64,000 bases of DNA from an uncultured Fibrobacteria bacterium (GTDB lineage: Bacteria; Fibrobacterota; Fibrobacteria; UBA11236), in the NCBI GenBank assembly GCA_963716395.1, contig OY970309.1, positions 1,632,001-1,696,000 on the forward strand, written 5' to 3'. The position numbers were made by a program, and so were the translations under genes. The notes below the pieces were generated by a model that was not told the DNA's origin, searched no databases, and saw only the letters and a list, made by a program, of their open reading frames with translations. Below, piece by piece: positions 30,767-47,987 of this stretch (positions are counted from its first letter, which is position 1; every line of letters starts with the position of its first letter).

Positions 30767-30861
30767 TCGAAAATGAACGTGTCCGCAGAGTCGGCTAGGT
30801 TGGAACCGGAAGGAATAGGATATGCCCGCCATTCTGACAACATAAATGAAAATATCACCCA

Positions 30862-31316: not shown

Positions 31317-32075
31317 ACCGGGTTCAAAATCGCTGCTGGCAATTCTGGAGGAACCGGGAATGTTACTGTCGGTTTCAATCTCATCAATGCGGGTCATCGC
31401 CAACCTGGCCGTAGGTGCTTTTCTTCCGCGCAGGAAATAATTGGGGCAACCGCCTTTGAGTTTACGCGGAATCCAAATGCCGCTTCTGGGAACGTCGTCT
31501 CTGGAAACGACAGTGATTCCTGTGGACAATGGAAAGCCGCCAATTTGTTTTGGAAAACGATACTTGTTCACATCAAACAATGGGTAGCTTAGTTTTCCAC
31601 TTGAGGGACTTTTTACTCTCATACTCATTTGAACGGCATTTTCCATCCAACACCAAAGTCCTATTGAAGGAGGATCGTTTGGCTCCCTAAAGTCTCCTCT
31701 TTTACCAAGGGGCCGGTATTCCATGTCGCTTCCAAAACGTCCGAAATAAAAGAGATTCTGAAACCGAATTCCTTCCCAAATTAAAGGGAGACCGGCTGCA
31801 TCTCCCTTTTGAATTCTCGTCAAACCATTTTCCAAATTGTTTAAGCAACCACATCCGCCTGACAACGCATCCAAGTATGCACCGGGCTCAGTTCGCTTTG
31901 CAACAAAGGCTTTGAACCCAGGAAGAAAGGCTTTCAGCATTTCTGTCATGCGGCCAATATAGGTAACTGAAGTGTTACGGCACAAAAGCCAAAAGGTTCT
32001 GGCAAGAATGTCCGGATTCGGAGCAAATGCTCCTGGCTTGAGAGCGACTGTATTACGGCTGTAAATGATGGACAT
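31179..32075 (-). CDS. Imm71/Imm72-family immunity protein (orphan module)
   Basis: FWLLCRNTSVTY, PRSGIWIP, GCPNYF, CTWELVWEDTRYRDGKIPLEEQEY; paralog of 32945-33841. Confidence 0.8.
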   Translation of the reverse strand: MSIIYSRNTVALKPGAFAPNPDILARTFWLLCRNTSVTYIGRMTEMLKAFLPGFKAFVAKRTEPGAYLDALSGGCGCLNNLENGLTRIQKGDAAGLPLIWEGIRFQNLFYFGRFGSDMEYRPLGKRGDFREPNDPPSIGLWCWMENAVQMSMRVKSPSSGKLSYPLFDVNKYRFPKQIGGFPLSTGITVVSRDDVPRSGIWIPRKLKGGCPNYFLRGRKAPTARLAMTRIDEIETDSNIPGSSRIASSDFEPGEFPCTWELVWEDTRYRDGKIPLEEQEYLLDDYTQFPKDPPVAPGP

Positions 32076-32112: not shown

Positions 32113-32650
32113 TCAATGTTTTGTTTCCAATTCCAACGGTTCAAGATGTTCGGCCTCGGGATGCGACGGAGGAATATTGACTTGCATGTAATCTTGCCAA
32201 TTGGTCGGAGTCTGCCTGCGTTTCAAGACTTCATCGAGAGCGTCTTTATTATTCGGATTGCGAAAGTCGATTAAAAGTTGGGTGCCGCCTCCTGGCAAAG
32301 ATTGGCCAAAAGCCAAATTTTGATCTCCGTTTTCCAATTTTGCGTCTCTATCGATTTGGCTAGATGCTTTACCTTCCCAAGCCCAAAGCTCGGTTCCTTC
32401 AGGAACCTCGAATTCGAGATAATATCCATTCTTGCTGAATTTATTCAGTACCGCCAAATCCTTTCGCCAATCTTCTCCACTTGCAGGTAGATGGTATGTC
32501 CACCATAAACCGTCATTGGGTTTTCCTTCCTGAATAACACGATAGACTTTTGTTCTTTCGGGTAATTTGACCGGACGTATGGGCCCGCTGAACGCTGCAA
32601 TGGCCCAATAATCTTTGGGTTCCTCTTCTACTTCACGTTTCCAGGACCGG
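32113..32650 (-). pseudogene. Orphan toxin C-terminal tip (TNT/NADase-like) lacking the delivery N-terminus
   Basis: AFSGPI, YRVIQEGKP, GLWWTY, WRKDLAVL, AWEGKASSQID, LPGGGTQ align with the C-terminus of 33885-35627. Confidence 0.8.
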
Positions 32651-33082
32651 CCTGCAATTCCTACGAAAAGTGTTGAATCCCGGGGCCAAAAATCAACCTG
32701 AAGCGGCGCTTTCCACAAGGGGGCGCGGGATCCTCCGGGAGATCGCTCAGGATGGTTCCACCCTCCGTCAGAATGCCTCCAATTGGGAACGACGGAAACA
32801 CGACGCCGACCAGGCCACCCCGGACGCGCACCGCAATGCCATCAAATCTGCGGTGGTGCTCGAAGTTGAGAACGGCAAGTACGTATACAAGGAAACTATC
32901 GCGCCTTGAAACCAACTGAGCGCGGGTGATATTAAGCCGAGGCCCTAAGGCCCCGGAGCCACCGGCGGATCTTTGGGGAATTGCGTGTAGTCGTCGAGCA
33001 AATATTCCTGCTCTTCCAAAGGAATTTTCCCATCACGATATCGTGTGTCTTCCCACACCAATTCCCAGGTGCAGGGGAATTC
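32628..33082. repeat. 455-bp direct repeat, copy B
   Basis: See copy A. Confidence 0.95.
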
Positions 33083-33841
33083 GGCGGAGTTGTAATGCGT
33101 AAAGGTGACCCGTGATGAGCCGGGATTATCGGTATCGGTCCTAATTTCTTCAAACTTAGATACGGCAATATTCGCAGGTGGTGCCTTGCGACCTCGAGTG
33201 AAATAATTCGGACAGCCGCCTTTGATTTTAAGCGGTTCCCAAATTCCAGAAATTGGAATATCGTCACCATTGCGAATGCAAATGCCCTTGCGTAATGGGT
33301 ATCCACCGATGATATCTGGAAATTTAAACTTGGAATTATCAAGTAATGGATACCAAAGTTTTCCGCTTAAGGCGGACTCGATAGGAATAGTCATTTGCAA
33401 CGCGTTTTCCATCCAACACCAAAGGCCAATGGAAGTTGGGGCGTTTGGTTGATCAAAGTCCCCCTTCTTACCAAGGGGAGAGTAATCCATGTCTCCACCA
33501 AATCGGCCGTAGTAGAATAAATCGCGAAATCCAATGCCATTCAAAATTTTGAAATATCCGGAATGGTTACCTTTTTTTAATTCCATTAATCCAGTTTCGA
33601 GTTGGCCTAACGCGCCATGGCCTTCAGAAAGCGCCGTTAAGTAGGCTCCTGGTTCTGTTTGTTTCGCGACAAAGTCTTTAAATCCTGGCATAAAGTTTTG
33701 AACAAGTTCGATCATTCGTCCGATGTAGGTCACCGAGGTATTTCGTTTGTATAACCAAAAGGTTTTGGCCAATGTTTGGCGATTAGGTGCAAAGGCTCCT
33801 TGCTTAAGAGGGGATTCTCTATTCTCGAAGTTAATGGTCAT
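32945..33841 (-). CDS. Imm71/Imm72-family immunity protein (cognate)
   Basis: Directly downstream of the toxin; same motifs as 31179-32075. Confidence 0.8.
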   Translation of the reverse strand: MTINFENRESPLKQGAFAPNRQTLAKTFWLYKRNTSVTYIGRMIELVQNFMPGFKDFVAKQTEPGAYLTALSEGHGALGQLETGLMELKKGNHSGYFKILNGIGFRDLFYYGRFGGDMDYSPLGKKGDFDQPNAPTSIGLWCWMENALQMTIPIESALSGKLWYPLLDNSKFKFPDIIGGYPLRKGICIRNGDDIPISGIWEPLKIKGGCPNYFTRGRKAPPANIAVSKFEEIRTDTDNPGSSRVTFTHYNSAEFPCTWELVWEDTRYRDGKIPLEEQEYLLDDYTQFPKDPPVAPGP

Positions 33842-33884: not shown

Positions 33885-35627
33885 TCAATTTGTTTTCGTT
33901 TCGACTTCCTCTGGTGTTAATCGATCGGTCTCGGTATGCTTTTTGGGTATCCCGATATCATTAAAATTAGTCCAATTAGTTTCGTCGAGCTTTGAATTCT
34001 CAATATCAGTTTTCGCAAATACGTTATCTTCGTTTTTAAAATCAATAAAAAATTGTTTGCCTCCTCCTTTTAGTCGTTGCCTGTAGGAAGGATTCCGTTC
34101 CCCGTTTCTCAAAAAAGGTTCGGTGTCGATTTGGCTGGAGGCTTTGCCTTCCCAAGCAACCAGCTTTTTGCCTTTCGGAACTGTGTATTTAACATAGTAT
34201 CCATTATTGCTGAATCTGTTTAACACTGCGAGATCTTCTCGCCAGTCATTTCCGGAATCCGGGAGACGATAAGTCCACCATACCCCGGTTTTGGGCTTGC
34301 CTGCTTGGATAACCCGAATAATAGTGGTTCCCTCTCCCAGTTCTATTCCTTCAATAGGTCCACTGAAAGCTTCGATCAACTCATAATGTTCAACACCATT
34401 AACCATCTCTACTTTTTTTCTCAAATCCGGCCACCCTTCCTTATGGTGGTAATCCGACAGGCTGTTCTGCGGAAACGGCATTTTCTCCGCCAGCTTGGCT
34501 TCATCCGCCACTTCGACCAGGCGCGCCTCGGCCTCGCGCGTTTCGCTGGTGACCGCGGAACCTTTGGGCACGGGAATCCAATCGCCCTGGTAAACCTTGT
34601 TTTGCACGGAATGGAGCTTGGAGTTGATATCCTTGACCGCCTTCGGAATCATCTCTTCGCCTTTTTTGGCCAAGGCATCAAAGCCGTTGCGCAAATCCGC
34701 CAGGCGGTTGCACATGCCTTCGGTCATGAGCCCGCCCAGGCGTTTCAAGGCCGCGGCCAACACGCCGTCGAGGCGGTTCATTAAATCGCCCCAATGGGAC
34801 TTCAAGGGGCCGATGTATTTCTCAAAATCGAGTTCCTTGATCCATTTGCGGGCGTCCCCGATGCCCACGCGATTCAAGAACGCGATCAGTTCACCGATTT
34901 TGACAGACTCTTTGGCCGCGTCTTCGCCCACCCGCACCACCAATTTGCCCACGCCCTTGAGCACGCCGCCCAAAATCGGAATCAAGGCCAAAAGCATGAT
35001 CACCAGAATCACCCATTCGGCGACTTCTTCGCGTTTCTTGGGATCGTCAACCAAGCGGATTACCACCGCCAGCAGATCGCGCACGGCCGTGACATCGCCC
35101 ACCAGGGGTATCATGCCGATGACGGCATCAACCATAATTTGGCTGACGGTTTGCTTTTCGTTGAAGCCGCCTTGCAAGGTTCCCCACACCCAATGAAAGG
35201 CGTCGAGGGCGAAGCTTTCCCGTGCCGGCGGCGGCAGGGCGCCATCGGGTCGCGGGCCGGCTTGAGCCTGCGTCACCGTGTCGTTGGCGTCGGCCTCGGT
35301 GAACGATTCCAGATATTCGGGATTGGGCGTTTGATCGGCGCGCGTATACGCTCGGCTGTCGGCGCCGAAGCGCACGCGTTTCGGAGGTGAGGGCAAATTG
35401 ACGACGCGCGCCTCCCCGTTCTCGTCCAGCTTTCCCTGGATGACTTGGCCGTTTTCCAATTCGAGTTCGAAGGGCGCGTCGACCACCGGCGAATCGTCAT
35501 GGTACCGTCGGCGCAGAGTCACGGTCTGCGTCGCGATGTCGACATCGTAGCGTTGACCCGTGGGCGCGTCGATGAACTCGGATTGGCCGCTGGCGTTCGG
35601 GGTCCACTCCAATACGGGATCGCTCAT
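33885..35627 (-). CDS. Polymorphic toxin: transthyretin-like N-domain, TM helices, TNT/NADase-like C-terminal toxin
   Basis: APFELELENGQVIQGKLDENGEARV (TTR-like); WGTLQGGFNE, GMIPLVGDV..VRDL, ALIPILGGVLKG; tip R..G.WW..R..LAV..Y.V..AWEG.A.Q..GGG.Q. Confidence 0.75.
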   Translation of the reverse strand: MSDPVLEWTPNASGQSEFIDAPTGQRYDVDIATQTVTLRRRYHDDSPVVDAPFELELENGQVIQGKLDENGEARVVNLPSPPKRVRFGADSRAYTRADQTPNPEYLESFTEADANDTVTQAQAGPRPDGALPPPARESFALDAFHWVWGTLQGGFNEKQTVSQIMVDAVIGMIPLVGDVTAVRDLLAVVIRLVDDPKKREEVAEWVILVIMLLALIPILGGVLKGVGKLVVRVGEDAAKESVKIGELIAFLNRVGIGDARKWIKELDFEKYIGPLKSHWGDLMNRLDGVLAAALKRLGGLMTEGMCNRLADLRNGFDALAKKGEEMIPKAVKDINSKLHSVQNKVYQGDWIPVPKGSAVTSETREAEARLVEVADEAKLAEKMPFPQNSLSDYHHKEGWPDLRKKVEMVNGVEHYELIEAFSGPIEGIELGEGTTIIRVIQAGKPKTGVWWTYRLPDSGNDWREDLAVLNRFSNNGYYVKYTVPKGKKLVAWEGKASSQIDTEPFLRNGERNPSYRQRLKGGGKQFFIDFKNEDNVFAKTDIENSKLDETNWTNFNDIGIPKKHTETDRLTPEEVETKTN

Positions 35628-35658: not shown

Positions 35659-36179
35659 TTACTTGGTTTTTACGGTGGACGTTAAATTGCTTTTTAAATA
35701 CTTCAACAAACTAATATTCGAATCAGATTTAATATCGGCGATTTTCCACTTTTCATGCATCCAAGCAAGTGTAAAAATGATGTTTTCTTTATGGTCGCAA
35801 TTCGTAAATCGGGCACCGCTTTCGATGCGAGTATTTTCAATGCGGTTGATTGAAACCGCCACATGAAATGTGTCGCACCAATCTTGGCAATTACAAATGA
35901 GATCAGCATCAAGAAGGCCGACTTCTCCATTCGCCAAACTGTCATCAAGACGGATCAATTTCAATAACTCGGGCGTGAAAAGGGTATCGGCGGCCTTGCC
36001 AAATAATTCGGCCCCGAGTCGGATGACGTAGTTGGAACGACGTTCGAATTATATCCCTTGTACAGATTCAAAATGAATGACTTCGCTGCCGCCGAATCTT
36101 GGCCAAAAATATTAGCGATCCAGAATAATCCTACTAAAACGGAAATCAATAATGAATTTGTTTTTGCCCCGGATTTCAT
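35659..36179 (-). pseudogene. Frameshifted DUF3828-like secreted protein (candidate immunity)
   Basis: ORFs 35961-36179 (signal peptide, AKSFILNLYKGY) and 35659-35964 (LDADLICNCQD, WKIADI) join with a single-base frameshift near 36000 via GKAADTLFTPELL. Confidence 0.7.
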
Positions 36180-36646
36180 TTGGCCAGTTTTAGAATTTTG
36201 GTTAAAGCAAATTGTTTCGAGATATTTTGAATCTGATTGTGAACCTTTATAGACGCTGAATCAGGAGTGAAATCGTCGAATTCCCAATTACTATCCAGCC
36301 CGAGGGCTTTTGCACATATTATCCGTTTCTCTGGAGTATAAACTAGGCAAGTATTTGGTTTCCCTTGCAAGGGTTCCAATTCCATTGTGAACCAGGTAAA
36401 CCCCTGCGAATGATCGAAGACGTTGAACGTGGTGTCACTTCCTCGAATAAGCGTATCGATCGATGCATCCTGATAAATGAGATAAACTTCGGTTGCATGT
36501 TGCATGTTTTGTTGCACATCGACGACGATTTTTTGAGGTTTCGGTTTTGTAAATTCGATGCTATCTACGATAGGTTTCGCAGCCTCCGACCTACAGCAGG
36601 CAAAGCCAAAACAAATCATAAAAAGGAGGCGGAAATTTAAATTCAT
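36176..36646 (-). CDS. Secreted/lipoprotein hypothetical, candidate immunity for the upstream SLT effector
   Basis: AT-rich, start overlaps effector stop, signal peptide ending FGFACC. Confidence 0.65.
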   Translation of the reverse strand: MNLNFRLLFMICFGFACCRSEAAKPIVDSIEFTKPKPQKIVVDVQQNMQHATEVYLIYQDASIDTLIRGSDTTFNVFDHSQGFTWFTMELEPLQGKPNTCLVYTPEKRIICAKALGLDSNWEFDDFTPDSASIKVHNQIQNISKQFALTKILKLAK

Positions 36647-38229
36647 TGATTTTTTCTCGCTAATATATGAGCAACATATTCCGCTATTTCTCGAAACTTA
36701 TCCTTTTTACCCCAACTTTCCGGGATGGCTTTGAAGAGAGGCGAGGTTTCGTTGGGCGTCTTAATTAGATCATCCCAAAGCGCCGCTTTTTTATTTGAAA
36801 ACTTATAGGCTTGCTGTATCGTGCCTTGGCCGGCGTTGTAGGCTGCGAGGTAAAACTTGGATTTTTCGTCCTCGTTTAATTCTTGATCATAATTGGAAAA
36901 CACATTTTGGTCGATTGCATTTTTCTTGAGGGAAAACTCTCTGGCCCCAGCTTGGATGGATTTTCCCGAATCAAACCGCTCGTCTCCAGCAAAGTCAAAG
37001 AACCAGTTCGACCCTATTTTCCTGGTATTGCCAACATGCAACCCCACTTCATGGATAGCGTCGCCTCCGATTTGTGTAAGACCCGCAAAGCCATGGTTGT
37101 TATGAGCTTTCGGATCAAAACCGCTTTCTTGGGCTATTAAGGATTTAAGAATGATGGGATCGATTCCATTTGCTTCTGCGGCAGACTTGATTTCATTGTT
37201 GTACTTGTTTTGGTCCGAAATATTTCGACCAAATCCTTGGTTCCAATTTGTCCAGACCGGATCTTCATTTTTCGGATTTGCCTGTCCTTCACCACCATTA
37301 TCGCTATCCGCATCATCATCGTCATCACCCCCATCGCCGGGCAACACCTGCGGCGCCAGCGGCTTTCCGTCGGTGCCGGTGGGTGTGAAGCCGGTCAGAC
37401 GCACGCGTCCGGCCTTGGGCTTGTCGACGCGCAAGATGCCGCTATCGGGGACGTCCGCGGTTTTTTTGGTGCCGTCGGGCAAAATCAGGGTTGCTTGGCC
37501 GCGTTGGCCGAAATCGAATTCCACCCAACTGTCATAAGGAATGGGAGCGGATTCGGCGGCCGCGCCCAGGCATTCGGCGCGCACCCGGAAATTCGGGACG
37601 GCATAGTCCTCGGCATTTTTGGCCAGGGTCCCCTTGCTTGCAAAAGTGCTTTCGTCGCCGGGATAGGTTCCCTGCCATTGCGCCGAGGCCTTGCCGTTAT
37701 TGACCAGGGCTTCAAGGCAGGCCAGGCGCGTGCGCGCGTGGTGGCGGTTTTCCACCACGATTTCAAAACGGCATACGGCCCCGTTGGGCGCACCCTGAAC
37801 CTTGGCTTCTACCGTATAGGTTTGCGCGGCTTCGACGTCTTTCAGCGCCTTGCCTTGCGCGTCCAAAAGGCGCACGTCGGAAATTTTCACCGCCGGCCCC
37901 ACCTTGACCTTGGGCCCCACGGCCTGGATCGCATGCGCCTTCAGTTCGGCTTCGAAATACATGCCGCCGGTTTTGTTGGGCTTGGTCACGGGATAAAGCG
38001 CGCGGAATAAATCGGAAACCACGTGCCCCTTCAGAGTTTCTACGACCTGGCCCTCGAGATCTTTGATGGTAACGTCGATTTCGGAGCCGTCGGCCACCCA
38101 ATGCGTCCACACTTCCAACGGGATTTTCCCGCCTTGGGCCACGGCGTCGCGGCCCCAACCCGTGCGCACAATCGAAGACGGCAGCTTGAGCTGCAAGACC
38201 TGATCGGTTTGGCCTTGGGTTTTGGGCAT
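36643..38229 (-). CDS. MPKxQGQTDQ-domain protein copy 1, fused to lytic transglycosylase (SLT) domain
   Basis: Shared N-domain; acidic linker GDGGDDDDDADSD; SLT motifs GIDPIILKSLIAQESGF, GLTQI, AAYNAG. Confidence 0.85.
   Translation of the reverse strand: MPKTQGQTDQVLQLKLPSSIVRTGWGRDAVAQGGKIPLEVWTHWVADGSEIDVTIKDLEGQVVETLKGHVVSDLFRALYPVTKPNKTGGMYFEAELKAHAIQAVGPKVKVGPAVKISDVRLLDAQGKALKDVEAAQTYTVEAKVQGAPNGAVCRFEIVVENRHHARTRLACLEALVNNGKASAQWQGTYPGDESTFASKGTLAKNAEDYAVPNFRVRAECLGAAAESAPIPYDSWVEFDFGQRGQATLILPDGTKKTADVPDSGILRVDKPKAGRVRLTGFTPTGTDGKPLAPQVLPGDGGDDDDDADSDNGGEGQANPKNEDPVWTNWNQGFGRNISDQNKYNNEIKSAAEANGIDPIILKSLIAQESGFDPKAHNNHGFAGLTQIGGDAIHEVGLHVGNTRKIGSNWFFDFAGDERFDSGKSIQAGAREFSLKKNAIDQNVFSNYDQELNEDEKSKFYLAAYNAGQGTIQQAYKFSNKKAALWDDLIKTPNETSPLFKAIPESWGKKDKFREIAEYVAHILARKNQ
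37888..38229 (-). repeat. 342-bp conserved 5' module (other copies at 42998-43339 and 46037-46378)
   Basis: Near-identical DNA at fixed offsets 5110 and 8149. Confidence 0.95.
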
Positions 38230-38235
38230 GGGCCA

Positions 38236-38278
38236 AAATTATAACCAGGGTGCGGGGCGGGTTGTGATCCCGGACACA
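38236..38278 (-). promoter_or_regulatory. Leaderless promoter: -10 TAATTT and CRP/FNR-like box TGTGA-N6-ACACA
   Basis: -10 at -12..-7 from the ATG; box 38263-38278 centred at -41.5; conserved before all three paralogs. Confidence 0.65.
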
Positions 38279-38361
38279 AGGCTTGATGGCCGGAGCTTTA
38301 AGGATGAAGATTAGCTTTACAATCCGGGATTCACTGTGACGTTCGGGAAAGGTCGAAGCGA

Positions 38362-41259
38362 ATGGCGCCTTCCAAAGTTACTTCGGACGGAAAACGAAAA
38401 GTTGTCGGCCATGAACCCGGGGTCATCCTGTACCCGGCTTTGGGCAATCCGGAATTGGTTTCGGGTGATGATTCGCTTCATCTCATTCTCTGCCTGGCGG
38501 TCGAGCCCTCCAAGATGAAGGGAGAAGCCGGTCAAAAAATCCTAGCCGCCGGGTTGAAGTTCATGTCGCTGGAGTCCGCTGAAAATTTCAAATTGCAAAG
38601 GCTGGGCGCAAACGACTTCCACGGCGCCTTGAATCCGTCTCTCGTCAAATCAATCGAATCTCTCTCCGCATTTTTTTCCCAGGATCCCCCGGTTGTCGAT
38701 ATCGCGAAGAAAAGATGGCAGGCGATTTTTAAAACCTCCATCGTCCGCTATTTCTCTTCGGGAACCCTGCATGGCTACAGTGACGAGAGGTTGCAGAAGG
38801 CGGGGTTGCAAAACGCCTATCACGTCGAGATGGATGGCCCGGTCCTCCGAAATTGGCTGTCGGAAAACGCCGGGGAAGAGCTGGCACAACATTGTTTCGT
38901 CACCTGGATGAGTAAGCCGCCGGAGGAAGGGTTTCGCGAAATCGAAGAAGAGGCGGTGACCAATGGCCTGCGCGAGGTTCAGCTAGGCGGGAAAAACAAG
39001 TTCATCGGCGCCCGGGTGCGAAGCGCCTGCGATCACTTTGTGTTGGATAACGACGACACCTTGGTGGGGCCCGACGGCCCTCTGCGGGTGTTTGATATCT
39101 TCCAGTGGCAATTCAGCCTTTATCATCCTCTGGCCACCTTACACCCGGTCTTTTTTTATGATGACGACGTTTGCCTGAACGTGGGCTATATCAGCGATCT
39201 CCACGTCGTATCCCGTCTGGAAATTCTGCGACGTTCGGATTTTCAAATGGTGCCGGGCGTGCATCCCGACTATTCGCCGAAAGTATCCGACCTGATTTCC
39301 ACCACCGGCCGGGCCGTCAAAGAGCTTTTGGACAAGGCCGGAACGGCCGGCACAGCGGGCGATACGCAAGACGGTGAAGTGGACGTGCTCGTGGTGGGCG
39401 GTGACCTCATTGATTTTGCGCAAAGCAGCTTCCCCGGTGCGGATTCGCTGGCCGAGGTATTGCCCGCGCAAAAAGTCAGGGATTTGGTGAACGCCGACGA
39501 GAATTCCTTGGATCGGTTATACGACTACGGCGTTGATCTCATGGCCATTTACGAATTGATCGTCGATTTTTATCGCACCTACCAAAAGCCGGTGGTGATT
39601 CTATCCGGCAACCACGATGCCTACGATGCGCCTTTCGGTGTTTCGCCGCGGATTGTTTTAAAAAGTAAGATGGGGAATCCGGGAATTCCCGCCGATGCGA
39701 ATTTGACCGTGGCCGAAGCCTGTCTGCTCTACGGTGATAATTACGACAAGCATTTTTTCAGCATCGGGGATTTTAATGCGGATGTGATGGACTGCTTTTA
39801 CCTCGTTTTCACCCCGGTGCTTTCCTTCACGGCGAAGATGGGGAAAATGCAATGGATATCGCTGGGATGGGGCGACGATGAGAATATGTTCACCGAGGGT
39901 CCGTCCATCGGACATTTGCCCAACGCCAACGATTCGGTGTCGGCCAGCGAAAGCACCTTGATCGATCAGGCGGTGAAATATGCGCAGGACCATGGGGTGA
40001 CAGGTCTCATGGTTTCCCACTTTACCTGGGCCAGTTTCGACGATGCGTTGCGGCAAGACCCGAAGCGGGTCGGCTATTTCCCCTGGGGCAATCCTGCGGA
40101 TTTGCTGACACCCAACGACGTCACCAAATACAATCTCGGCACGTGCGAATTGAACCGGAAAAAGGTGTACGAGCATTTGTACAACGGTCGGATTCACGCT
40201 GCGATATCCGGCCATTCCCACCGCGCCGGCCTGTACCAGATCGACAGCTTGCATTACGTCGGCGACCGGGTTTCGGTGACGTCGCGCGGGATGGACGATT
40301 TTCAAGCAAAAAAAGATTCGGTCGACGCGCCTTACATCATTGTTTCCGACTCCTCCGGCCCCTTGCCGCGGGAAAACGTCGAACCCGTCGCGGTGCAGGA
40401 CGAAGACGGTTTTGCGGCCGGGGCCTTCAACGGATGGGGAAGCCATGCGCCGTCATTTACCAAACTCACCTTCGATTCCATGGGCGAACTGACCGATCTC
40501 CGCCGCGTGTGGACCACGCAGCCGAGAACCAAGCCGCGCCTGGCCGTGGCCATGGATTATTACGAGCTGGAAAATCAGCCTACGCTTGGAAACGACTTCT
40601 GGCTGAAAGACATCACCACGCTCAAACCCATCACCATGGACGGCGTCGATCAAATGAAACGGGATGCGAACGGCAAAATCCCTTTGCATCTCCATTGGTT
40701 CAAAGATCACATTCCCGCGTGGATCGGCGTGGCCTCGGCCACCTTGCATTTCCGGACCCATCCTCCCCGGGCGCCGGGTTTTTACACCTTCCGGATTTTC
40801 TATGCCGGCAATTCGTGGATTCTCGACGACCCGGACTTTACACTGCTGGATCTGCAAGATGATTTTTCCGTCACTGGATTTCTATCCATCATCTTGGGGA
40901 CCTACCATGACAAAACCGCCGGAAGTTCGGTGGACCGGTATAACATCTCCAGCCCATGGGTGGTGGCCGTAAACATCAAGGTTACGGCGGCGGCTCCCGG
41001 GTTTCTGGGTCTGACTACCAACGATTTCAAATTGAAAATTTCCCGAGTGTGGGATTTTGTCAAATACCCCGCGCAATCTGCTTATGTGAAACTCCTGCCG
41101 TCATCTGGCGGCGAGCCGGTTTCGACGCCGGAAGGGGGCGCCGATTCGCCCGGGCGAGGAGCAGGTGCGACACCTTCCAACGGGTCGCAGGGGGTCGGTG
41201 ACGACAGCGGTTCCCGCCCGGATCCCGGCTTCCAGATCAAAATTCCATTGCCGTTTTGA
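38362..41259 (+). CDS. Large calcineurin-like metallophosphoesterase domain protein
   Basis: ISDLHV, GGDLID, SGNHDAY, SH, SGHSH metal-binding motifs. Confidence 0.8.
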   Translation: MAPSKVTSDGKRKVVGHEPGVILYPALGNPELVSGDDSLHLILCLAVEPSKMKGEAGQKILAAGLKFMSLESAENFKLQRLGANDFHGALNPSLVKSIESLSAFFSQDPPVVDIAKKRWQAIFKTSIVRYFSSGTLHGYSDERLQKAGLQNAYHVEMDGPVLRNWLSENAGEELAQHCFVTWMSKPPEEGFREIEEEAVTNGLREVQLGGKNKFIGARVRSACDHFVLDNDDTLVGPDGPLRVFDIFQWQFSLYHPLATLHPVFFYDDDVCLNVGYISDLHVVSRLEILRRSDFQMVPGVHPDYSPKVSDLISTTGRAVKELLDKAGTAGTAGDTQDGEVDVLVVGGDLIDFAQSSFPGADSLAEVLPAQKVRDLVNADENSLDRLYDYGVDLMAIYELIVDFYRTYQKPVVILSGNHDAYDAPFGVSPRIVLKSKMGNPGIPADANLTVAEACLLYGDNYDKHFFSIGDFNADVMDCFYLVFTPVLSFTAKMGKMQWISLGWGDDENMFTEGPSIGHLPNANDSVSASESTLIDQAVKYAQDHGVTGLMVSHFTWASFDDALRQDPKRVGYFPWGNPADLLTPNDVTKYNLGTCELNRKKVYEHLYNGRIHAAISGHSHRAGLYQIDSLHYVGDRVSVTSRGMDDFQAKKDSVDAPYIIVSDSSGPLPRENVEPVAVQDEDGFAAGAFNGWGSHAPSFTKLTFDSMGELTDLRRVWTTQPRTKPRLAVAMDYYELENQPTLGNDFWLKDITTLKPITMDGVDQMKRDANGKIPLHLHWFKDHIPAWIGVASATLHFRTHPPRAPGFYTFRIFYAGNSWILDDPDFTLLDLQDDFSVTGFLSIILGTYHDKTAGSSVDRYNISSPWVVAVNIKVTAAAPGFLGLTTNDFKLKISRVWDFVKYPAQSAYVKLLPSSGGEPVSTPEGGADSPGRGAGATPSNGSQGVGDDSGSRPDPGFQIKIPLPF

Positions 41260-41269
41260 ACCCGCGTCC

Positions 41270-42415
41270 ATGTACCGTCGACTTCTGGTTCTTTCTCTGT
41301 TTCCCTTGGGGTTTCACATGCACAATGATCACCACGCTGACCTGGACAGCCTGCTCAAAGACGTGCCCGCATTCAATCGGCGTTTTGCATCGACCGTACT
41401 GGAGGTGGGGGACGACCATTGGCCGGATTACGCCGTGACGGGAATGGAACTCCGTGGGGCGCGTTTCTCGGGGACCGAATTCTCGGGAAGCCGGATTTCC
41501 CAATCGAAATTCTCGGATTGCCGGTTCCAAGACGTGGCGTTTACTGCCGCCGAACTGCAAGACGTCGAATTCGACCGCTGCCGATTCGAGCACTGCGTTT
41601 TCACGGCTGCGAAGGTGTCGAATTGTCGGTTTCGGGGCGGGGATTTCAGCGAAACGGTTTTGCAATTCGAAAAAGACAGCCCCCATTGGACCATCGTGGA
41701 AAATTCGAAATTCGACAGCGTGCGCTTTGCCGGATTGCATCTGAACAAAGCGAATTTTAGCAACTCCTTTTTTCAAAAGGACACGTTCGAAGACATCGAC
41801 TACGAAGACGCGCTGTTTTCCAAATGTTCGTTCCAAGCGCCGCGCTTTGCCGGAAAAGATTTCTCCAATGTCCAGTTCACCGAATGCCTTTTGGAACATC
41901 CCGTTTACCAAGGCCCGAAACTGCAAAAGGCGGCGTATGCAAAAACGGTGATTATTGGAGTCCAATTGGCGCCGGAGTCGAACTGGAGCGAACGGAATTT
42001 CGGAGTGCTGGGTGTCGTGTTCAAAAATTCGACGTTTGATTTATCCAAGTTGCGCGGAAACTTCGGATTGAACGGCGGCGAAGATTGCACGATCGAGAAT
42101 TTCGATTCCGAAGGTTCGTTCGGGTTGAGCGGGGTTTACACCCGTGTTATGATCAAAAACATTCGTGCCAGGCGGCTTGATCTGGATCACGGCACGGTGT
42201 GCAAGCAGGTCCGCTTTGAAGAGGTCGAAGCCCGCGACGTGTACTTGGATAAGTCGCAATTCACGGATTGCATGTTCCGAAATTTTACGGCCGGGAAATT
42301 CATGCGCGCCGACAGCGCCACGTTTGAAAACGTGCGCTGGGAAAACGCCAAGTTGGGCGCGGGTGCGGTCTTTTCCGCCAAAGGCACCATTTACGAACAG
42401 CACCCTCCGTTTTAA
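41270..42415 (+). CDS. Pentapeptide-repeat protein with signal-peptide-like N-terminus
   Basis: ARFSG-TEFSG-SRISQ-SKFSD-CRFQD repeats; ATG 11 bp after upstream stop. Confidence 0.85.
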   Translation: MYRRLLVLSLFPLGFHMHNDHHADLDSLLKDVPAFNRRFASTVLEVGDDHWPDYAVTGMELRGARFSGTEFSGSRISQSKFSDCRFQDVAFTAAELQDVEFDRCRFEHCVFTAAKVSNCRFRGGDFSETVLQFEKDSPHWTIVENSKFDSVRFAGLHLNKANFSNSFFQKDTFEDIDYEDALFSKCSFQAPRFAGKDFSNVQFTECLLEHPVYQGPKLQKAAYAKTVIIGVQLAPESNWSERNFGVLGVVFKNSTFDLSKLRGNFGLNGGEDCTIENFDSEGSFGLSGVYTRVMIKNIRARRLDLDHGTVCKQVRFEEVEARDVYLDKSQFTDCMFRNFTAGKFMRADSATFENVRWENAKLGAGAVFSAKGTIYEQHPPF

Positions 42416-42442
42416 GTCGGTGGCCGCTCCCGGCGGGTTGCC

Positions 42443-43339
42443 TCAACGAAGCAAATCGGCAATCGCGCTTTCGTCAACGTGGTACATGCCCGGCTTGGTT
42501 TTCGGCACTTCGATTTGCCCGTCGGCGGGGATGACGTATTCTTTTTTTTCGCCGTCGGGCGCGGTGACCGAAATTTTCTTGCCCGCGAATTTTCCCGCTG
42601 TTCCCGGAGAAAATTCATAGATGAGCAGCATTGCCTGCACGGCGGGTACTGCATTTGACTTCGCCGTCACGCCCCAAAGCTCCAAGGTGAACACGAATGC
42701 GGGGTGGTAGTACTTCCCGCCGTGTTTATCCAAATCGCTTTGGGTCAGGATTTCTTTCACGTCTTTGGGAAAGGGTTTGTTCCAGGTGAATTGAATTTTG
42801 CCTTTTTGCACTTCGGCCCGGGTGGAAAGCACGCGCAAGACGTTGTGTTCATCAGCTTGGAAAAGCACGAGAGCGCTCACCGTGGCGCCCGCAGGCGCGC
42901 CCTCGACCGAGGCTTGGCATAATACCGCTTCGCCGTCCTGTACTTCTTTCAATTCGGATTGTCCTTTTTCGTCCAGCCATTTCAAATTCTTGAATTGCAC
43001 CCCCGGCCCCACCTTGACCTTGGGCCCCACGGCTTTGACCGCATGCGCCTTGAGTTCGGCTTCGAAATACATGCCACCGGTTTTGTTGGGCTTGGTCACG
43101 GGATAAAGCGCGCGGAACAAATCGGAAACCACGTGCCCCTTCAGAGTTTCTACGACCTGGCCCTCGAGATCTTTGATGGTAACGTCGATTTCGGAGCCGT
43201 CGGCCACCCAATGCGTCCACACTTCCAACGGGATTTTCCCGCCTTGGGCCACGGCGTCGCGGCCCCAGCCCGTGCGCACAATCGAAGACGGCAGCTTGAG
43301 CTTCAAAACCTGATCGGTTTGGCCTTGGGATTTGGGCAT
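42443..43339 (-). CDS. MPKxQGQTDQ-domain protein copy 2 (no fused toxin)
   Basis: Shared N-domain then divergent half ending APDGEKKEYVIPADGQIEVPKTKPG. Confidence 0.85.
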   Translation of the reverse strand: MPKSQGQTDQVLKLKLPSSIVRTGWGRDAVAQGGKIPLEVWTHWVADGSEIDVTIKDLEGQVVETLKGHVVSDLFRALYPVTKPNKTGGMYFEAELKAHAVKAVGPKVKVGPGVQFKNLKWLDEKGQSELKEVQDGEAVLCQASVEGAPAGATVSALVLFQADEHNVLRVLSTRAEVQKGKIQFTWNKPFPKDVKEILTQSDLDKHGGKYYHPAFVFTLELWGVTAKSNAVPAVQAMLLIYEFSPGTAGKFAGKKISVTAPDGEKKEYVIPADGQIEVPKTKPGMYHVDESAIADLLR

Positions 43340-43345
43340 GGTTGA

Positions 43346-43387
43346 AAGTTATAAACGACTGGGAATCGAGTTGTGATCTTGAACACC
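43346..43387 (-). promoter_or_regulatory. Leaderless promoter with CRP-like box (copy 2)
   Basis: TAACTT at -12..-7; TGTGA-tcttga-ACACC at 43372-43387 centred at -40.5. Confidence 0.6.
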
Positions 43388-43419
43388 AAGGCTTCATGAC
43401 CGGGGCTTGCAGGCTTGGG

Positions 43420-43593
43420 GGTACCTCTACTAATCGCATTCCGGCTGCGGCTCCGCCTGCGGCGGACGAAGGCCTCCGGCTTCGTTGTCCGCCGCAGGCG
43501 GAGCGATATTCAAGCCATATCGCCTTTCTCACGCGCCTTGCCGGCGGCCTTCTCGCTAGGCCTCGCTTACGAAAGCCGATTATTAGAGGTCCC
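43420..43593. mobile_element. MITE-like element, 174 bp, with terminal inverted repeats and internal hairpin
   Basis: GGTACCTCTACTAATCG / CGATTATTAGAGGTCCC (15/17 match); stem GCTCCGCCTGCGGCGGAC...GTCCGCCGCAGGCGGAGC. Confidence 0.75.
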
Positions 43594-43712
43594 TTGGACA
43601 AGCCAAAAGAAAAACTCACAGAGAGGGGGACCGATTCAAGCTGCAAGGTTTAATCCGATGGTTACCTGTCGTCATCAAGGAAAAGTTTGGAGATCGGAAA
43701 TTGCCGGGAGTA

Positions 43713-44939
43713 TCATTCCGTCGGCCAAGCGGGAGGTTCATCCAAATCATTGCGAGCGGGGAGAGGATCTGTTTGAGCTTCTACTTCCAAATCCGCAGGC
43801 ACCACATCCGCGCTGACCTGACTCCCTTCGGGCGAATGCAACAATGCGGTTGCATATTGAACGGCCTGTGGCCCGCTGCCGTTGTAATTTTGCCAAGCGG
43901 GGCGCGCCCAGTCTTTCCAGGTAATTCCAGCGGCGAAGTTATGCCTGAGCAGTCCTAAGAAAAGATTCATGCCCAGGTCGACATTCGCCGTCCAATCCCA
44001 AGCTATGGCCCCGGGGATCGTGCGCGCGCCGACTTTTGTGTATTGCGAAATACCCACGCCGAAATCGAAAGTCGCCAAGGGGAAATGCGGCGGATCATCC
44101 GGCCAATCGAAGACCACATGACAATCCGGTTGCGTCGGGTCGTTTTGATGATGGCGTTGGGTGAAATTCATGGCGGCACGTGTCTGCGCGTCGTTTTTGA
44201 ATTGAGTAAAAGCGGATTCGTGGGCGAAAACGGCGCGTACCATATGGCGGATATTTTCATTCCGATCGGACAGGGCGTCATCGACATGCCGGAGCACGGC
44301 GGCTGAACCGGGGTTCGCGCCTCCGATGCGCATGTGTACGAAATCAAGCAGCGGCGGGCTCACGCGCCCGGGGTTCGCGGACAGGGAGAGAATGGCGTGC
44401 CCCCCCAAAACCGGCGACCCGGGATCCATTGAGTTATAAGTGCATTGCAAATCTTCATTGGACACGTCATCGAATAGAACGAAGTCATTTTTGCCGCTCC
44501 AACCCTACCACTCCAAATTAAAGATTTCGCAGGCCCCGCCGTACCGATAATGCCCGTGGTTTGTGTGGCGGCACAGCACATGACGGCATTGCAATCGCCA
44601 TTGGATGGGAAACTCCGTGGGATCGAATCCCGACACTTCGCATTCCACATGCAACTTTGGCATGCGCGGGTCTTCGGTAAGGCTGAACACGTTCCGATTG
44701 AATGTGGAACGCCGTGGAACGTCATTTTCATGATAGCCCGGCGGGTCGGCGGCGTCCAAATTCGTGATGCGAAGCCCGAACACCCCATCGGCGGCAATTT
44801 GATGCGTCGCGCCCGTTGCGAATCGGGTGTTTCGGGCGGCCGGCGAAAGGCTTCCCTGGTTTCTAAACGGCAACGCCAAACCGTCATTGCTGCCGCTGAA
44901 ATTGTTATCGAGAAGATGCCAATCCGGAGTGTGCGCCAT
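43713..44939 (-). pseudogene. Lysozyme/SLT-like protein interrupted by one in-frame TAG (44505-44507)
   Basis: ORFs 44505-44939 and 43713-44465 share a frame (NLEW*GWSGKNDF); C-terminal AVFAHES, GVGISQ, NYNGSG motifs. Confidence 0.7.
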
Positions 44940-44940
44940 G

Positions 44941-45492
44941 TCAGTTCCGGGGACAATGGAACGAGTAGGTGGCGTTGCCTTCGCAGGGGTTGGCTTCGGA
45001 ACGGCATTTCCATTCGCAATCGATCTCCAAGGTGTCTACTGCGCCGGAAGCCGTGAAAGCAAGGCCCGTGACCTGGCAGATGGAATTGCCGGGCAGTTCT
45101 TGGGCGGGCTGCCAACCTTCTTTTCCTTTCGTCAAGCCCGCGCGCTTTGCGCCTTGATGCATCCAGTCCGCGGATGGATCTCCGGAGCATTTCAACGAGT
45201 CGAGTTGCCAATCAATGCTTGGGAATTTTTTACCGGAAGGCGGCGTTTGCCGGATTCGGGCGCGGCCACGGCATTGATAAGACGCGTCGTCGAGGAAAGC
45301 CTTTACCGAATAAATGCAAAGCCGCGAAATCGAGTCCGCCGGCGGCGCCGCTTCTTTGGCGGTGGATGAATGGATGGAGTCGGCAGCGCCATTTTTTATG
45401 GGCCATGGTTTTTCCGCGGACGAGATGCCCAGGCAGGCGATATACGCCAAAATGAGCGCACGGCAAATCCGTGAAAAAAGGATGGATGCCAT
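44941..45492 (-). CDS. Secreted Cys-rich hypothetical protein (candidate immunity)
   Basis: Signal peptide; lies between copy 3 and the lysozyme-like gene with 13- and 1-bp gaps. Confidence 0.6.
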   Translation of the reverse strand: MASILFSRICRALILAYIACLGISSAEKPWPIKNGAADSIHSSTAKEAAPPADSISRLCIYSVKAFLDDASYQCRGRARIRQTPPSGKKFPSIDWQLDSLKCSGDPSADWMHQGAKRAGLTKGKEGWQPAQELPGNSICQVTGLAFTASGAVDTLEIDCEWKCRSEANPCEGNATYSFHCPRN

Positions 45493-45505
45493 ATCACGAA
45501 AGATA

Positions 45506-46378
45506 TCAGTTATCGGAAAAACCTTTAAATAGAACGGGTCCCGGAACGGCAGTCTTCACATTGAGGTACCCGTCTTCCGGAACGGAAATTTCTTTTTTGG
45601 TTCCGTCGGGGAATTCAAATATTGCTTTGCGCGCCATTTTACGCTTTTGCGCCGGACCAAAATTAAAAGCAATCCAGGAATTCAACTTCAACTCCTGAGA
45701 CATTTTCTTGACGCCCAAGTGAAAGGCTTCGAACGAATAAACCGGTTGAAAATAATCCAGCCCGTATTTTGAGACATCATGGTCCGTGGGGATATCCTCG
45801 AATTTACCTGGGAAAGAAACCTTCCAATCCACGCGGACCTGCCCCGATTCGATCTCGACAGAAAAGGATTTGAATGAAGCCGGGCGGTGTTCTTGCGTGC
45901 GGCAAAAAAGTGAAAGGGCGGCGCGATCGCCTTCCTGAGCGCCTTTGATTTGGGCCGTTAATTCAACCTTGGCCCCTGCGGCAATTTCGGAAACCTCTTT
46001 CCCCTTCTCGTCGACCCATTTCAAATCGCTCCATTGCACCGCCGGCCATACCTTGACCTTGGGTCCCACGGCCTTGATCGAATGCTCATGGAGTTCGGCT
46101 TCGAAATACATGCCGCCGGTTTTGTTGGGCTTGGTCACCGGATACAACACGCGGAACAAATCGGAAACCATGTGCCCCTTCACGGTTTCCACGATCTGGC
46201 CTTCGAGATCTTTAATGGCGATGTCAATCTCAGATCTATCGGCCACCCAATGCGTCCACACTTCCAACGGGATTTTCCCGCCTTGGGCCACGGCGTCGCG
46301 GCCCCAGCCCGTGCGCACAATCGAAGACGGCAGCTTGAGCTTCAAAACCTGATCGGTTTGGCCTTGGGTTTTGGGCAT
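45506..46378 (-). CDS. MPKxQGQTDQ-domain protein copy 3 (no fused toxin)
   Basis: Shared N-domain then divergent half ending FPDGTKKEISVPEDGYLNVKTAVPG. Confidence 0.85.
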   Translation of the reverse strand: MPKTQGQTDQVLKLKLPSSIVRTGWGRDAVAQGGKIPLEVWTHWVADRSEIDIAIKDLEGQIVETVKGHMVSDLFRVLYPVTKPNKTGGMYFEAELHEHSIKAVGPKVKVWPAVQWSDLKWVDEKGKEVSEIAAGAKVELTAQIKGAQEGDRAALSLFCRTQEHRPASFKSFSVEIESGQVRVDWKVSFPGKFEDIPTDHDVSKYGLDYFQPVYSFEAFHLGVKKMSQELKLNSWIAFNFGPAQKRKMARKAIFEFPDGTKKEISVPEDGYLNVKTAVPGPVLFKGFSDN

Positions 46379-46384
46379 GGGCTA

Positions 46385-46427
46385 AAGTTATAAACCGGGC
46401 TCGGACCGGGTTGTGATCGCCGACACC
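46385..46427 (-). promoter_or_regulatory. Leaderless promoter with CRP-like box (copy 3)
   Basis: TAACTT at -12..-7; TGTGA-tcgccg-ACACC at 46412-46427 centred at -41.5. Confidence 0.6.
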
Positions 46428-46572
46428 AGTCCCCTGGCCCGTGGGCTTAATGCATCGTAGGAACCATCCCATTTTCAAATCTGCGAATGGAACAATACGG
46501 GCTGAAAAAATGCGAACGAAGAGGTTACCTCGGATGGCACGCCGCTGAGAGCGGAAGCCTCCGAGGCGGACT

Positions 46573-47793: not shown

Positions 47794-47987
47794 TTCCACC
47801 TCATCAAAAGTGCTGAATTTCAAATAAATATAGCGCCCGGGAAATTTTTCGGTGGGTAAAATCGCGACGCGGGAGAGATTGATTTTCATCGGAAAACCGG
47901 GTTCGGATGTTTCCCAAAATCGGTGCCATAAAAATCAAATCCGACCCTATTTTAACCTTGGGGAAAATTCGTGAGGGGAGGAGTCTA

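Follow-up and report, generated by a model that had tools for sequence, protein, structure and literature searches.

This report concerns three related genes, and the protein family to which they belong, in a 64,000-nt stretch of the genome of an uncultured Fibrobacteria bacterium of the phylum Fibrobacterota (GenBank assembly GCA_963716395.1, contig OY970309.1, positions 1,632,001 to 1,696,000 of the forward strand). We refer to this whole stretch as the window; it corresponds to C1:1632001-1696000 of the 3.75-Mb genome, which is a single contig, and coordinates are those of the window unless a genome or locus is named. The three genes lie on the minus strand, start with a common head and then diverge. 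We consider it rather probable (about 70%) that they encode an undescribed family of type VI secretion system (T6SS) cargo proteins with an N-terminal loading module of ~285 residues, built of three domains (D1, D2 and D3). The genes and the parts of their shared region are as follows (ORF, open reading frame).

36643..38229, minus strand: copy 1, 528 aa; module at residues 1-283 (nt 37381-38229), acidic linker and C-terminal lytic transglycosylase (SLT) domain; the 'evolved' form, fused to a putative toxin.
42443..43339, minus strand: copy 2, 298 aa; stand-alone module, convergent with a phosphoesterase/pentapeptide gene pair.
45506..46378, minus strand: copy 3, 290 aa; stand-alone module, leading the run copy 3, 183-aa ORF, lysozyme-like ORF, copy 2.
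37888..38229, minus strand: head of copy 1 (D1, codons 1-114); 96.8% and 90.4% identical in DNA to the heads of copies 2 and 3.
42998-43339 and 46037-46378, minus strand: heads of copies 2 and 3, the first 342 nt of each coding sequence.
46379..46429, minus strand: leader of ~50 nt before copy 3, conserved and part of the homogenised block; equivalents at 38230-38280 and 43340-43390.

A preliminary description of this DNA had reported three minus-strand genes with a nearly identical 5' part of 342 nt, which switches at a sharp point to diverged but homologous halves. The ORFs are indeed present, and the first 342 nt of their coding sequences are identical at 331 positions (96.8%) between copies 1 and 2, at 309 (90.4%) between copies 1 and 3, and at 310 (90.6%) between copies 2 and 3. 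A repeat finder returned a single three-copy family of 300 nt (37885-38184, 42995-43294 at 97% and 46034-46333 at 89%), and the head sequence has just 3 copies in the entire genome. The ~50 nt 5' of each ATG are also highly alike among the three copies. The switch was equally apparent: in 30-nt windows the drop in identity falls at about nt 330-360 of the coding sequence, and past codon 114 the identity is 26-31% in protein (47/169, 44/169 and 54/176) and 41-47% in DNA. The bodies of the three proteins are nonetheless homologous, and all of them end in a PDG..K...P.DG motif.

The conserved leader contains GATCACAAC, and a few bases 5' of the ATG it has TTATAA(C/T)TTT, which we take to resemble the TAnnTTTG -7 promoter element of Bacteroidota. 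A general scan was uninformative: it found 21 promoter-like sites, against an expectation of 13.1 +/- 3.1, and no more terminator-like sites than chance would give.

The three proteins have hydrophilic N-termini, and no Sec or Tat signal peptide or membrane anchor is visible when they are read from the sequence. In copy 1 the acidic linker was said to lead into a lytic transglycosylase, and residues 347-481 match this domain (PF01464, E 3e-12); a domain expected to act in the periplasm is therefore carried by a protein with no visible signal peptide. Copies 2 and 3 matched no Pfam family at E<=0.1 and no NCBIfam model.

A word-indexed search returned 14 relatives of these proteins, the two named ones being annotated as 'hypothetical protein' of Fibrobacteres metagenome-assembled genomes (MAGs), and a narrow-pattern search for related loci gave 3 loci, all from Fibrobacterota MAGs. 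A family profile made from the relatives was run against 1.84 billion cluster representatives, of which 563 matched at E<=1e-3, 281 at E<=1e-10 and 115 at E<=1e-30. The copies themselves match the family profile (A4) with E 6.4e-95 (copy 1, residues 1-281), 1.8e-103 (copy 2) and 3.1e-103 (copy 3). In 146 of the 150 matches listed, the aligned region begins no later than residue 25 of the protein, and it mostly spans profile positions 1 to ~285; six were N-terminally cut fragments. Family members range from ~285 to 1266 aa; among 161 listed proteins, lengths cluster at ~270-345 aa, and 49 of the 161 are at least 365 aa long. Because these matches and lengths hold family-wide, the conserved unit is the whole ~285-aa D1-D2-D3, which is wider than the 114-aa head.

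The preliminary description had not recognised the head as one of the known markers, and had expected a profile search to reveal a variety of fused C-terminal domains. The first point agrees with our searches, in which the ~285-aa module has no Pfam or NCBIfam model and PAAR, DUF4123, DUF1795 and DUF2169 were not matched; for the last three, no Pfam match was obtained in the three proteins at E<=0.1. An hhalign comparison of the A4 profile with the genome's own DUF2169 protein gave a probability of 0.1. The expected variety was also observed when the search was made with the whole-module profile. Among 48 long members, the Pfam domains found besides the module were PG_binding_1 (4), OmpA (4), Amidohydro_2 (4) and SLT (2), with single fusions to phage lysozyme, CHAP, M23, LysM, PG_binding_2, beta-lactamase2, GH46 and DcrB; the annotated partners are mainly domains that bind or cleave peptidoglycan.

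The fusions also bear on the function of the stand-alone forms. About half of the listed members measure ~270-345 aa and carry no toxin domain, and members adjoin toxin genes, as would suit non-secreted cytoplasmic chaperones or adaptors (like Tap-1/DUF4123, Eag/DUF1795 or DUF2169) that load the toxins encoded next to them. We nevertheless regard such a role as improbable. The module is fused before toxins in the 49 longer proteins, an arrangement typical of effector N-terminal domains and of secreted carriers such as Hcp, VgrG and PAAR, and not of chaperones. The family moreover already has chaperone genes of its own beside it, of the DUF1795 and DUF2169 types.

With respect to taxonomic range, look-alike clusters in the Atlas (scores 0.93-0.94) are commonest in Ignavibacteriota and Zixiibacteriota and occur in Fibrobacterota too, and one PAAR cluster scored 0.78; these are leads only, and the family may reach beyond Fibrobacterota to other phyla of the Fibrobacterota-Chlorobiota-Bacteroidota (FCB) group. 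One further protein of 2313 aa (P0099) contains six stretches that match the D2-D3 body, and the D2-D3 pair can thus also be repeated in tandem away from the setting of the N-terminal module.

The fold of the module was predicted for copy 3. The AlphaFold2 (AF2) model based on an alignment of 74 relatives reached a predicted local distance difference test (pLDDT) of 96.0 and a predicted template modelling (TM) score of 0.87, while the single-sequence model reached a pLDDT of only 39.7. The model consists of three all-beta (beta-sandwich) domains, namely D1 (residues 1-111), D2 (115-226) and D3 (230-288). On this model, D1 is predicted to be macroglobulin/immunoglobulin (Ig)-like, D2 Ig-like and D3 prealbumin/transthyretin (TTR)-like. 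In a structure search independent of Foldseek, D1 matched the macroglobulin domain 2p9r_B (Z 11.6, root-mean-square deviation [rmsd] 2.4, 92 residues aligned). The top match of D2 alone was BtaeB in a VgrG cargo complex (9jg8_C, Z 11.2, rmsd 2.5, 107 aligned), and the next had Z 9.2. At the level of sequence profiles, D2 weakly matches the C-terminal domain of the Bacteroides fragilis PAAR protein 8gra_J (E 0.0043), and D3 resembles Bap-type adhesin repeats (7dm0_A, E 1.4e-7). Weak Pfam matches of the Ig/prealbumin type lie over D3 in the 48 long members as well (SpaA in 2, Big_1 in 2 and CarboxypepD_reg in 1).

The preliminary description had tied the three genes to a contractile injection machine, and the distribution of the family, its vgrG/PAAR neighbourhoods, its fused toxins and its immunity-like neighbours support this tie. 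The genome encodes TssK, TssM/IcmF, TssA, TssC and Hcp ~1.6 Mb from the copies, and the presence of TssK, TssM (IcmF) and TssA identifies the system as type i (T6SS-i). Its sole VgrG is at 2.68 Mb and is followed by genes for a DUF2169 protein, a PG_binding_1 protein and three HEAT-repeat proteins, and the genome carries two PAAR proteins of 572 and 609 aa. We compared by hand the occurrence lists for 201 genomes of the phylum (one of them, G194, is included in the counts, with no claim depending on it alone). The family is present in 48 and TssC in 87 of the 201 genomes; TssC was found in 46 of the 48 carriers, versus 41 of the 153 other genomes. Seven other genomes of the same genus (2.2-2.7 Mb, 1-1.5 Mb smaller) have neither the family nor TssC, VgrG or PAAR.

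For gene linkage we considered 46 full-length copies outside the window genome, defined by a profile start at or before position 10 and an end at or after position 270. A VgrG gene lies on the same contig within 10 kb of 7 and within 21 kb of 12 of these copies, a PAAR gene within 10 kb of 14 and within 21 kb of 16, and either of the two within 21 kb of 18. Since many contigs are short, these counts are lower bounds. Nine loci share a recurrent gene order, in which VgrG, sometimes DUF2169, a ~365-aa PAAR protein and a large effector with a peptidoglycan-binding domain are followed by an immunity gene, HEAT-repeat or other small genes, the family gene, and then a small gene or toxin. A DUF1795 gene (PF08786, now DcrB) stands directly upstream of the family gene in two loci (L043 and L050), and the domain is fused to the N-terminus of the module in P0109. 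DUF1795 is the Eag chaperone family, according to the part of the source available to us (PMC4524185). The window genome has no DUF1795 gene, hence an Eag partner cannot be general.

Two loci also contain large proteins of ~1530 aa encoded 3' of family genes (L047 11834-16447 and L050 1080-5660), with parts similar to zinc phospholipase C, OmpA and C39 peptidases. A ~260-aa OmpA-containing region is common to these proteins, to the segment that follows the module in P0025, P0027, P0088 and P0097, and to the N-termini of effectors that follow PAAR-extension genes.

The ~365-aa proteins encoded after VgrG in relatives show PAAR motifs between residues ~9 and ~100 (E 2e-12 and 5.6e-19), and they match the family profile twice, with a D3-like domain (D3') at ~140-195 and D2-D3 at ~200-365. 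The two PAAR proteins of the window genome, both of the toxin type (G000:C1:54773-56491 and 1180984-1182813; L059 and L058), match the A4 profile at positions 114-292 with E ~1e-22. In the three module proteins themselves, PF05488 (PAAR) gave no match at E<=0.1. With a profile of the PAAR-extension proteins, products that combine PAAR and D2-D3 in a single frame were found in at least 38 of the 201 genomes, namely 32 of the 39 with a strong family match (E<=1e-20) and 6 of the 162 others; 14 further matches lie outside these counts, which are lower bounds for that reason. Four more carriers (G061:C325, G037:C12, G121:C456 and G018:C41) have a split form, in which a ~165-aa PAAR gene directly precedes a ~790-aa ORF that opens with D3'-D2-D3 and continues into a toxin, the equivalent domains being fused in one protein elsewhere. 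As both single-frame and split forms exist, D2-D3 is best described as an element that can be part of the PAAR protein itself or come from the neighbouring gene. The family co-distributes with the PAAR extension more tightly than with T6SS itself. Ten VgrGs of the phylum, including that of the window genome, end in a bare beta-helix (...VVMIN) with no TTR-like extension.

One candidate was rejected in the course of this comparison: the protein of ~370 aa that follows VgrG and matches the body had been considered a DUF2169 protein, but it carries PAAR motifs, and the genome's DUF2169 protein is unrelated to the family. A 247-aa ORF of the window genome (57859-58602 of G000:C1) also starts with a D3-like domain.

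These distributions make it most improbable that the module is a generic family of Ig-like repeats, unrelated to secretion, whose association with T6SS merely follows from the common descent of the genomes in the sample. The fold is indeed ubiquitous, and related genomes do inflate co-occurrence. Shared ancestry would not by itself place VgrG or PAAR genes near 18 of 46 copies, nor explain the domains common to the module and PAAR proteins and the fusion to an Eag chaperone; within the genus, moreover, the family occurs only in the one T6SS-bearing genome out of eight.

The near identity of the three heads invites a different division of labour, in which the 114-aa head alone is the docking marker and D2-D3 is an adaptor that picks the toxin, so that copies 2 and 3 would be adaptors for toxins encoded beside them. 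The preliminary description had proposed a scheme of this kind, with a docking head and a cargo-binding body. Protein identity in the window genome is 88-95% for the heads and 20-41% for the bodies, as a single shared docking partner would lead one to expect; the genome has one VgrG, and its two PAARs have identical N-terminal parts of 372 aa. Conservation likewise decreases from D1 to D2 to D3 among paralogues of three other genomes (G189, G169 and G047), and separate toxin genes follow stand-alone forms, both in L038 and after copy 3 of the window.

Across the family, however, the entire 285 aa are conserved at the N-terminus, and D2-D3 is common to PAAR extensions whatever toxin comes next; forms already fused to a toxin need no body that binds cargo. 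The likeness of the heads is also specific to particular genomes. In five of eight other multi-copy genomes (G130, G106, G173, G102 and G105), the heads of paralogues are only 26-48% identical, and the values of 68-93% are confined to the three genomes named above. In G169 the break comes after D2, with identities of 83-93% in D1, 69-79% in D2 and 29-42% in D3.

Unrooted FastTree trees of 117 family members (44 of 161 rows with less than 85% coverage were dropped) place the three heads differently from their bodies. The D1 tree unites the three copies in one clade with support 1.0. The D2-D3 tree pairs each copy with a sister protein of another genome (support 0.64-0.92), and the common ancestor of the three spans 52 of the 117 tips. 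Accordingly, the best outside match of the heads is 58-67% identical, and that of the bodies 42-44%, compared with 26-31% among the bodies of the copies. Because the trees conflict and heads are unlike in other genomes, head identity is ascribed to gene conversion or recombination rather than to a rule of the family, and the conflict points to local recombination with no functional rule behind it. The sequences point to three old, diverged paralogues that would have received the same head and leader in this way. The docking-head proposal was therefore not upheld as it stood, and we judge it unlikely.

The two PAAR toxins of the genome show a similar pattern. Up to residue 372 the two are essentially the same (DNA identity at least 99% over ~1.09 kb, starting ~40 nt upstream), and beyond it they have different C-termini resembling M23 peptidases, which is the same 'constant front, variable rear' arrangement as in the copies.

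Taken as T6SS cargo, the proteins of this family could work as follows. In the genome's canonical T6SS-i, the module would tether its protein to the VgrG-PAAR spike, most likely through contact with the D3'-D2-D3 extension of the phylum's PAAR proteins, a homologue of the D2-D3 part of the module. It is PAAR that bears the TTR/Ig-like extension here, and the PAAR extension is for that reason the likeliest platform. Toxins fused to the modules, or encoded beside the stand-alone ones, would be fired into neighbouring bacteria, and periplasmic immunity proteins encoded downstream would protect the producer. The head, that is D1 with its ~50-nt leader, would have been homogenised among three old paralogues within the window genome.

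The preliminary description had also suggested that complexes with VgrG and PAAR be modelled. A model of three VgrG tips (residues 620-718), PAAR residues 1-374 and copy 3 obtained a score of 0.45 (runs 0.42, 0.51 and 0.45), against 0.00 for the best of three controls and 0.00 with the PAAR chain replaced; at least 55% of the contacts agree between runs, and the pLDDT of the partner is at least 73. Of 80 solved complexes, 58 reach the mark set for this score, as do 2 of 110 mismatched pairs, and scores at or below 0.60 account for 7 of the 80 and for both of the mismatches that pass. The tool classes this result as weak support. We treat docking of the module on the PAAR extension as a tentative prediction, with the odds against it.

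Several observations weigh against the cargo reading. As to the complex, results of the class in question are more often wrong than right unless there is a good prior; the modelling job differs from those on which the tool was calibrated, and the D2-D3 homology between module and PAAR could bias the score. As to the fold, Foldseek searches of the PDB returned only generic tandem Ig/macroglobulin arrays (TM 0.24-0.30, rmsd 13-21), and the VIA structure search gave the same generic picture. For D1-D2, complement and alpha-2-macroglobulin rows (Z 10.5-12.3) were tied with BtaeB rows, the N-terminal domain of BtaeB (9jdh_A) matching with Z 11.6 over 197 aligned residues at an rmsd of 15.9; since this fold class is very common, the resemblance is a lead rather than proof of kinship.

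As to the genomes, the island in the window lies ~1 Mb from the only vgrG and ~0.5 Mb from the nearer PAAR gene. One carrier (G035, in 780 contigs) has no match to TssC, VgrG or PAAR, and another (G125) has VgrG and PAAR and no TssC match. For 28 of the 46 full-length copies there is no spike gene within 21 kb on the contig, many of the contigs being short, and the relatedness of the sampled genomes means that co-occurrence counts overstate independence. Pfam has no match for the majority of the C-terminal extensions, and a description of the family as carrying mostly cell-wall toxins therefore draws on the annotated minority. Finally, the results proper are the family with its fold and fusions, its co-occurrence and gene linkage with T6SS spike genes, the D2-D3/PAAR homology and the recombination pattern; secretion, the docking site, toxicity and immunity are predictions from computation.

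The copies are part of a low-GC stretch at about 26-48 kb of the window (47-56% GC versus ~62% in the flanks), where all of the toxin and immunity genes are gathered. The region from 20 to 52 kb of the window contains no tRNA. The other genes of this island are listed below in the order of their coordinates.

31179..32075, minus strand: second Imm72 gene (PF15584, E 1e-15), after the orphan cassette.
32113..32718, minus strand: orphan cassette of 201 aa corresponding to a toxin C-terminus; shares 52% identity over 164 aa with the C-terminal end of the 580-aa toxin candidate.
32945..33841, minus strand: Imm72/Imm71-type immunity gene (PF15584, E 4.6e-18), after the 580-aa toxin gene.
33885..35627, minus strand: 580-aa toxin candidate with an N-terminal D3-like beta-sandwich (weak D3 match), a hydrophobic segment and a C-terminal toxin module.
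36176..36646, minus strand: 156-aa ORF that overlaps copy 1 at its stop; the N-terminus is hydrophobic and includes a lipobox-like ..GFAC; matches nothing in Pfam or NCBIfam.
38362..41259, plus strand: 965-aa calcineurin-like phosphoesterase (PF00149, E 1.8e-5); homologue at L048 7303-10209 (E 2.4e-258).
41165..42415, plus strand: 416-aa pentapeptide-repeat protein (PF13599, E 5.7e-24); homologue at L048 6133-7299 (E 4.9e-102).
43713..44939, minus strand: lysozyme-like frame, ORFs of 144 and 250 aa in one frame with an in-frame TAG between them at 44505-44507.
44941..45492, minus strand: 183-aa ORF that separates copy 3 from the lysozyme-like ORF; the N-terminus is hydrophobic; matches nothing in Pfam or NCBIfam.

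Judging from its sequence, the 156-aa ORF downstream of copy 1 may encode a periplasmic protein that confers immunity to the SLT toxin of that copy. It is followed by two small ORFs and then by the 580-aa toxin candidate, which is 43% identical over 560 aa to the product of the gene directly 3' of a stand-alone module gene in L038. In P0061 the module is fused to a region matching the N-terminal part of this protein (E 2.6e-27). Searches of PDB sequences with the 580-aa protein and with the 250-aa neighbour of copy 3 gave nothing useful.

Direct repeats of 88-98% identity (30862-31219 and 32628-32985) extend over the 3' end and the downstream flank of each Imm72 gene, and a third, partial copy (26563-26743) sits on the left border of the low-GC island. 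In consequence, the first 30 residues of the ORFs 32113-32718 and 28982-30952 are 97% identical. The repeats are likely to be recombination substrates for cassette shuffling. The island thus combines several hallmarks of polymorphic toxins: sharp identity breaks, an orphan C-terminus with a second Imm72 gene, repeats flanking the cassettes, and the conflict between head and body trees.

The phosphoesterase and pentapeptide genes were already recognized as the neighbours of copy 2 in the preliminary description, and the pair is kept in a second genome, G100 (L048 6133-10209), directly after a PAAR-extension gene. In both genomes it is convergent with the family gene. The position after the PAAR-extension gene in G100 makes the phosphoesterase a likely T6SS effector, and together with the pentapeptide protein it may form a new effector/partner pair.

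Of the two genes placed after copy 3, the one said to encode a secreted protein was recovered as the 183-aa ORF with its hydrophobic N-terminus, a candidate immunity protein on these features. The lysozyme call for the other proved weaker: neither Pfam nor NCBIfam gave a match, the only lead, from the Atlas to g-type lysozyme/SLT proteins, scores 0.88, and the frame is interrupted by the TAG. Since the Atlas look-alikes are ~320-330 aa long, the gene may be broken, or there may be two genes. The gene 5' of copy 3 (46573-47889) resembles 3-keto-disaccharide hydrolases, with a sub-threshold match to a type IX secretion system C-terminal sorting domain (E 0.0018), and it is probably the right edge of the island.

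The prevalence of PG_binding_1, OmpA and LysM among the fused domains, together with SLT, M23 and CHAP, could also be taken to indicate accessory T6SS factors that remodel or anchor to the producer's own peptidoglycan, in the manner of TagX, MltE or OmpA/peptidoglycan-binding anchors. Such factors would have to reach the producer's periplasm, and the proteins have no signal peptide or membrane anchor for this purpose. Furthermore, genomes carry several diverged paralogues with shuffled rear ends, small exported proteins of immunity-like character and Imm72 genes adjoin them, and the genes are found in vgrG/PAAR cargo islands, outside the core T6SS cluster. A role on the producer's own wall is therefore very improbable, and we return to T6SS cargo as the preferred interpretation.

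To our knowledge, the way in which T6SS cargo effectors are recognised and attached to the spike has been worked out in no more than a few systems, from proteobacteria and Bacteroides. The literature on T6SS in Fibrobacterota/Fibrobacteres and on PAAR with transthyretin or Ig-like domains, in the portions available to us, yielded no prior description of the module. As an N-terminal marker for searches, it points to hundreds of putative effectors that lack annotation, in a phylum that has received little study; many of these proteins have C-terminal regions of no known family. It also represents a case where a TTR/Ig-like docking element sits on PAAR and not on VgrG, and is shared by PAAR and its presumed passengers. 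Finally, the window genome amounts to a natural experiment: with three near-identical heads on diverged bodies, and two PAAR toxins with identical fronts, the question of docking versus cargo binding becomes directly testable.

PAAR proteins with a C-terminal extension, and 'evolved' PAAR toxins, were reportedly described by Shneider et al. in 2013; the B. fragilis PAAR protein 8gra is mentioned in PMC13402684. The family resembles such PAAR proteins in its homologous D2-D3, in the existence of stand-alone and toxin-fused forms and in the constant front with a variable rear. Because it has no PAAR motif and D1 stands in the place of PAAR, the module cannot cap VgrG as PAAR does. We hold it possible, though doubtful, that D1-D2-D3 defines a fourth class of secreted T6SS carrier besides Hcp, VgrG and PAAR. 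This would be a spike-side passenger with plain and 'evolved' forms, which would dock on PAAR D3'-D2-D3 by pairing of beta-sandwiches and whose docking domain would be kept uniform by gene conversion. If so, one PAAR tip could carry several different toxins at once.

MIX and FIX, too, are conserved N-terminal regions that mark T6SS effectors of the polymorphic kind, in which the C-terminal toxins vary and immunity genes lie close by. The module is set apart from them, on the basis of their descriptions, by its other fold and sequence, its much greater length, its occurrence in stand-alone form and the two domains it shares with PAAR. More generally, the polymorphic toxins of Zhang et al. (2012) are said to combine a constant N-terminal trafficking part with C-terminal cassettes that recombine, and to be accompanied by immunity genes as well as orphan cassettes. 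For the adaptors, DUF2169 is reportedly the subject of Bondage et al. (2016). Like DUF4123, DUF1795 and DUF2169 adaptors, the family is encoded in vgrG islands, where DUF1795 and DUF2169 genes accompany it; unlike them, the module is often fused to toxins and has no sequence relation to them. Alpha-2-macroglobulin and complement proteins are exported and consist of long macroglobulin arrays with a thioester or bait region. In the 290-aa protein, which has no signal peptide, only D1-D2 is macroglobulin-like, and the A2M family gave no Pfam match.

Two effector systems are nearest in general design. As far as the available text of its description goes (PMC11796386), Tae17 of Acinetobacter baumannii binds the TTR-like extension of VgrG17 through an N-terminal part made up of an Ig-like domain and LysM, with edge-to-edge strands, and this part is followed by amidase and lytic transglycosylase domains. 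Judged by the same text, Tae17 is, like the present proteins, a modular peptidoglycan hydrolase and T6SS-i cargo effector with no signal peptide, in which Ig-like, peptidoglycan-binding and lytic parts are combined. It differs in having one Ig-like domain of 88 aa, compared by description with the three domains and ~285 aa found here; the VgrGs of this phylum, moreover, have no TTR-like extension, and such an extension is on PAAR instead. In Bacteroides fragilis, BtaeB forms a VgrG cargo complex with a PAAR-like effector and the adaptor BtapC that is needed for T6SS function, according to the accessible parts of two reports (PMC13699834, PMC13402684). BtaeB (PDB 9jdh; 9jg8 for the BtpeA-BtaeB-BtapC complex) has an effector N-terminal domain of tandem beta-sandwiches that rides on a VgrG-PAAR spike; its fold match to the module is tied with those of macroglobulin domains. 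It belongs, as far as these sources indicate, to the T6SS-iii (GA3) of Bacteroidota and needs BtapC, for which itself no search was made, whereas the system considered here is T6SS-i; a HMMER search of PDB sequences found no match to 9jdh at E<=10. Given the different T6SS type, the VgrGs with no TTR extension and the absence of a sequence match (Tae17 being compared by description only), the family cannot be placed with either BtaeB or Tae17. What is new here is an unannotated N-terminal module, probably for T6SS loading, whose two rear domains are shared with PAAR extensions, and in outline it would work as BtaeB and Tae17 do.

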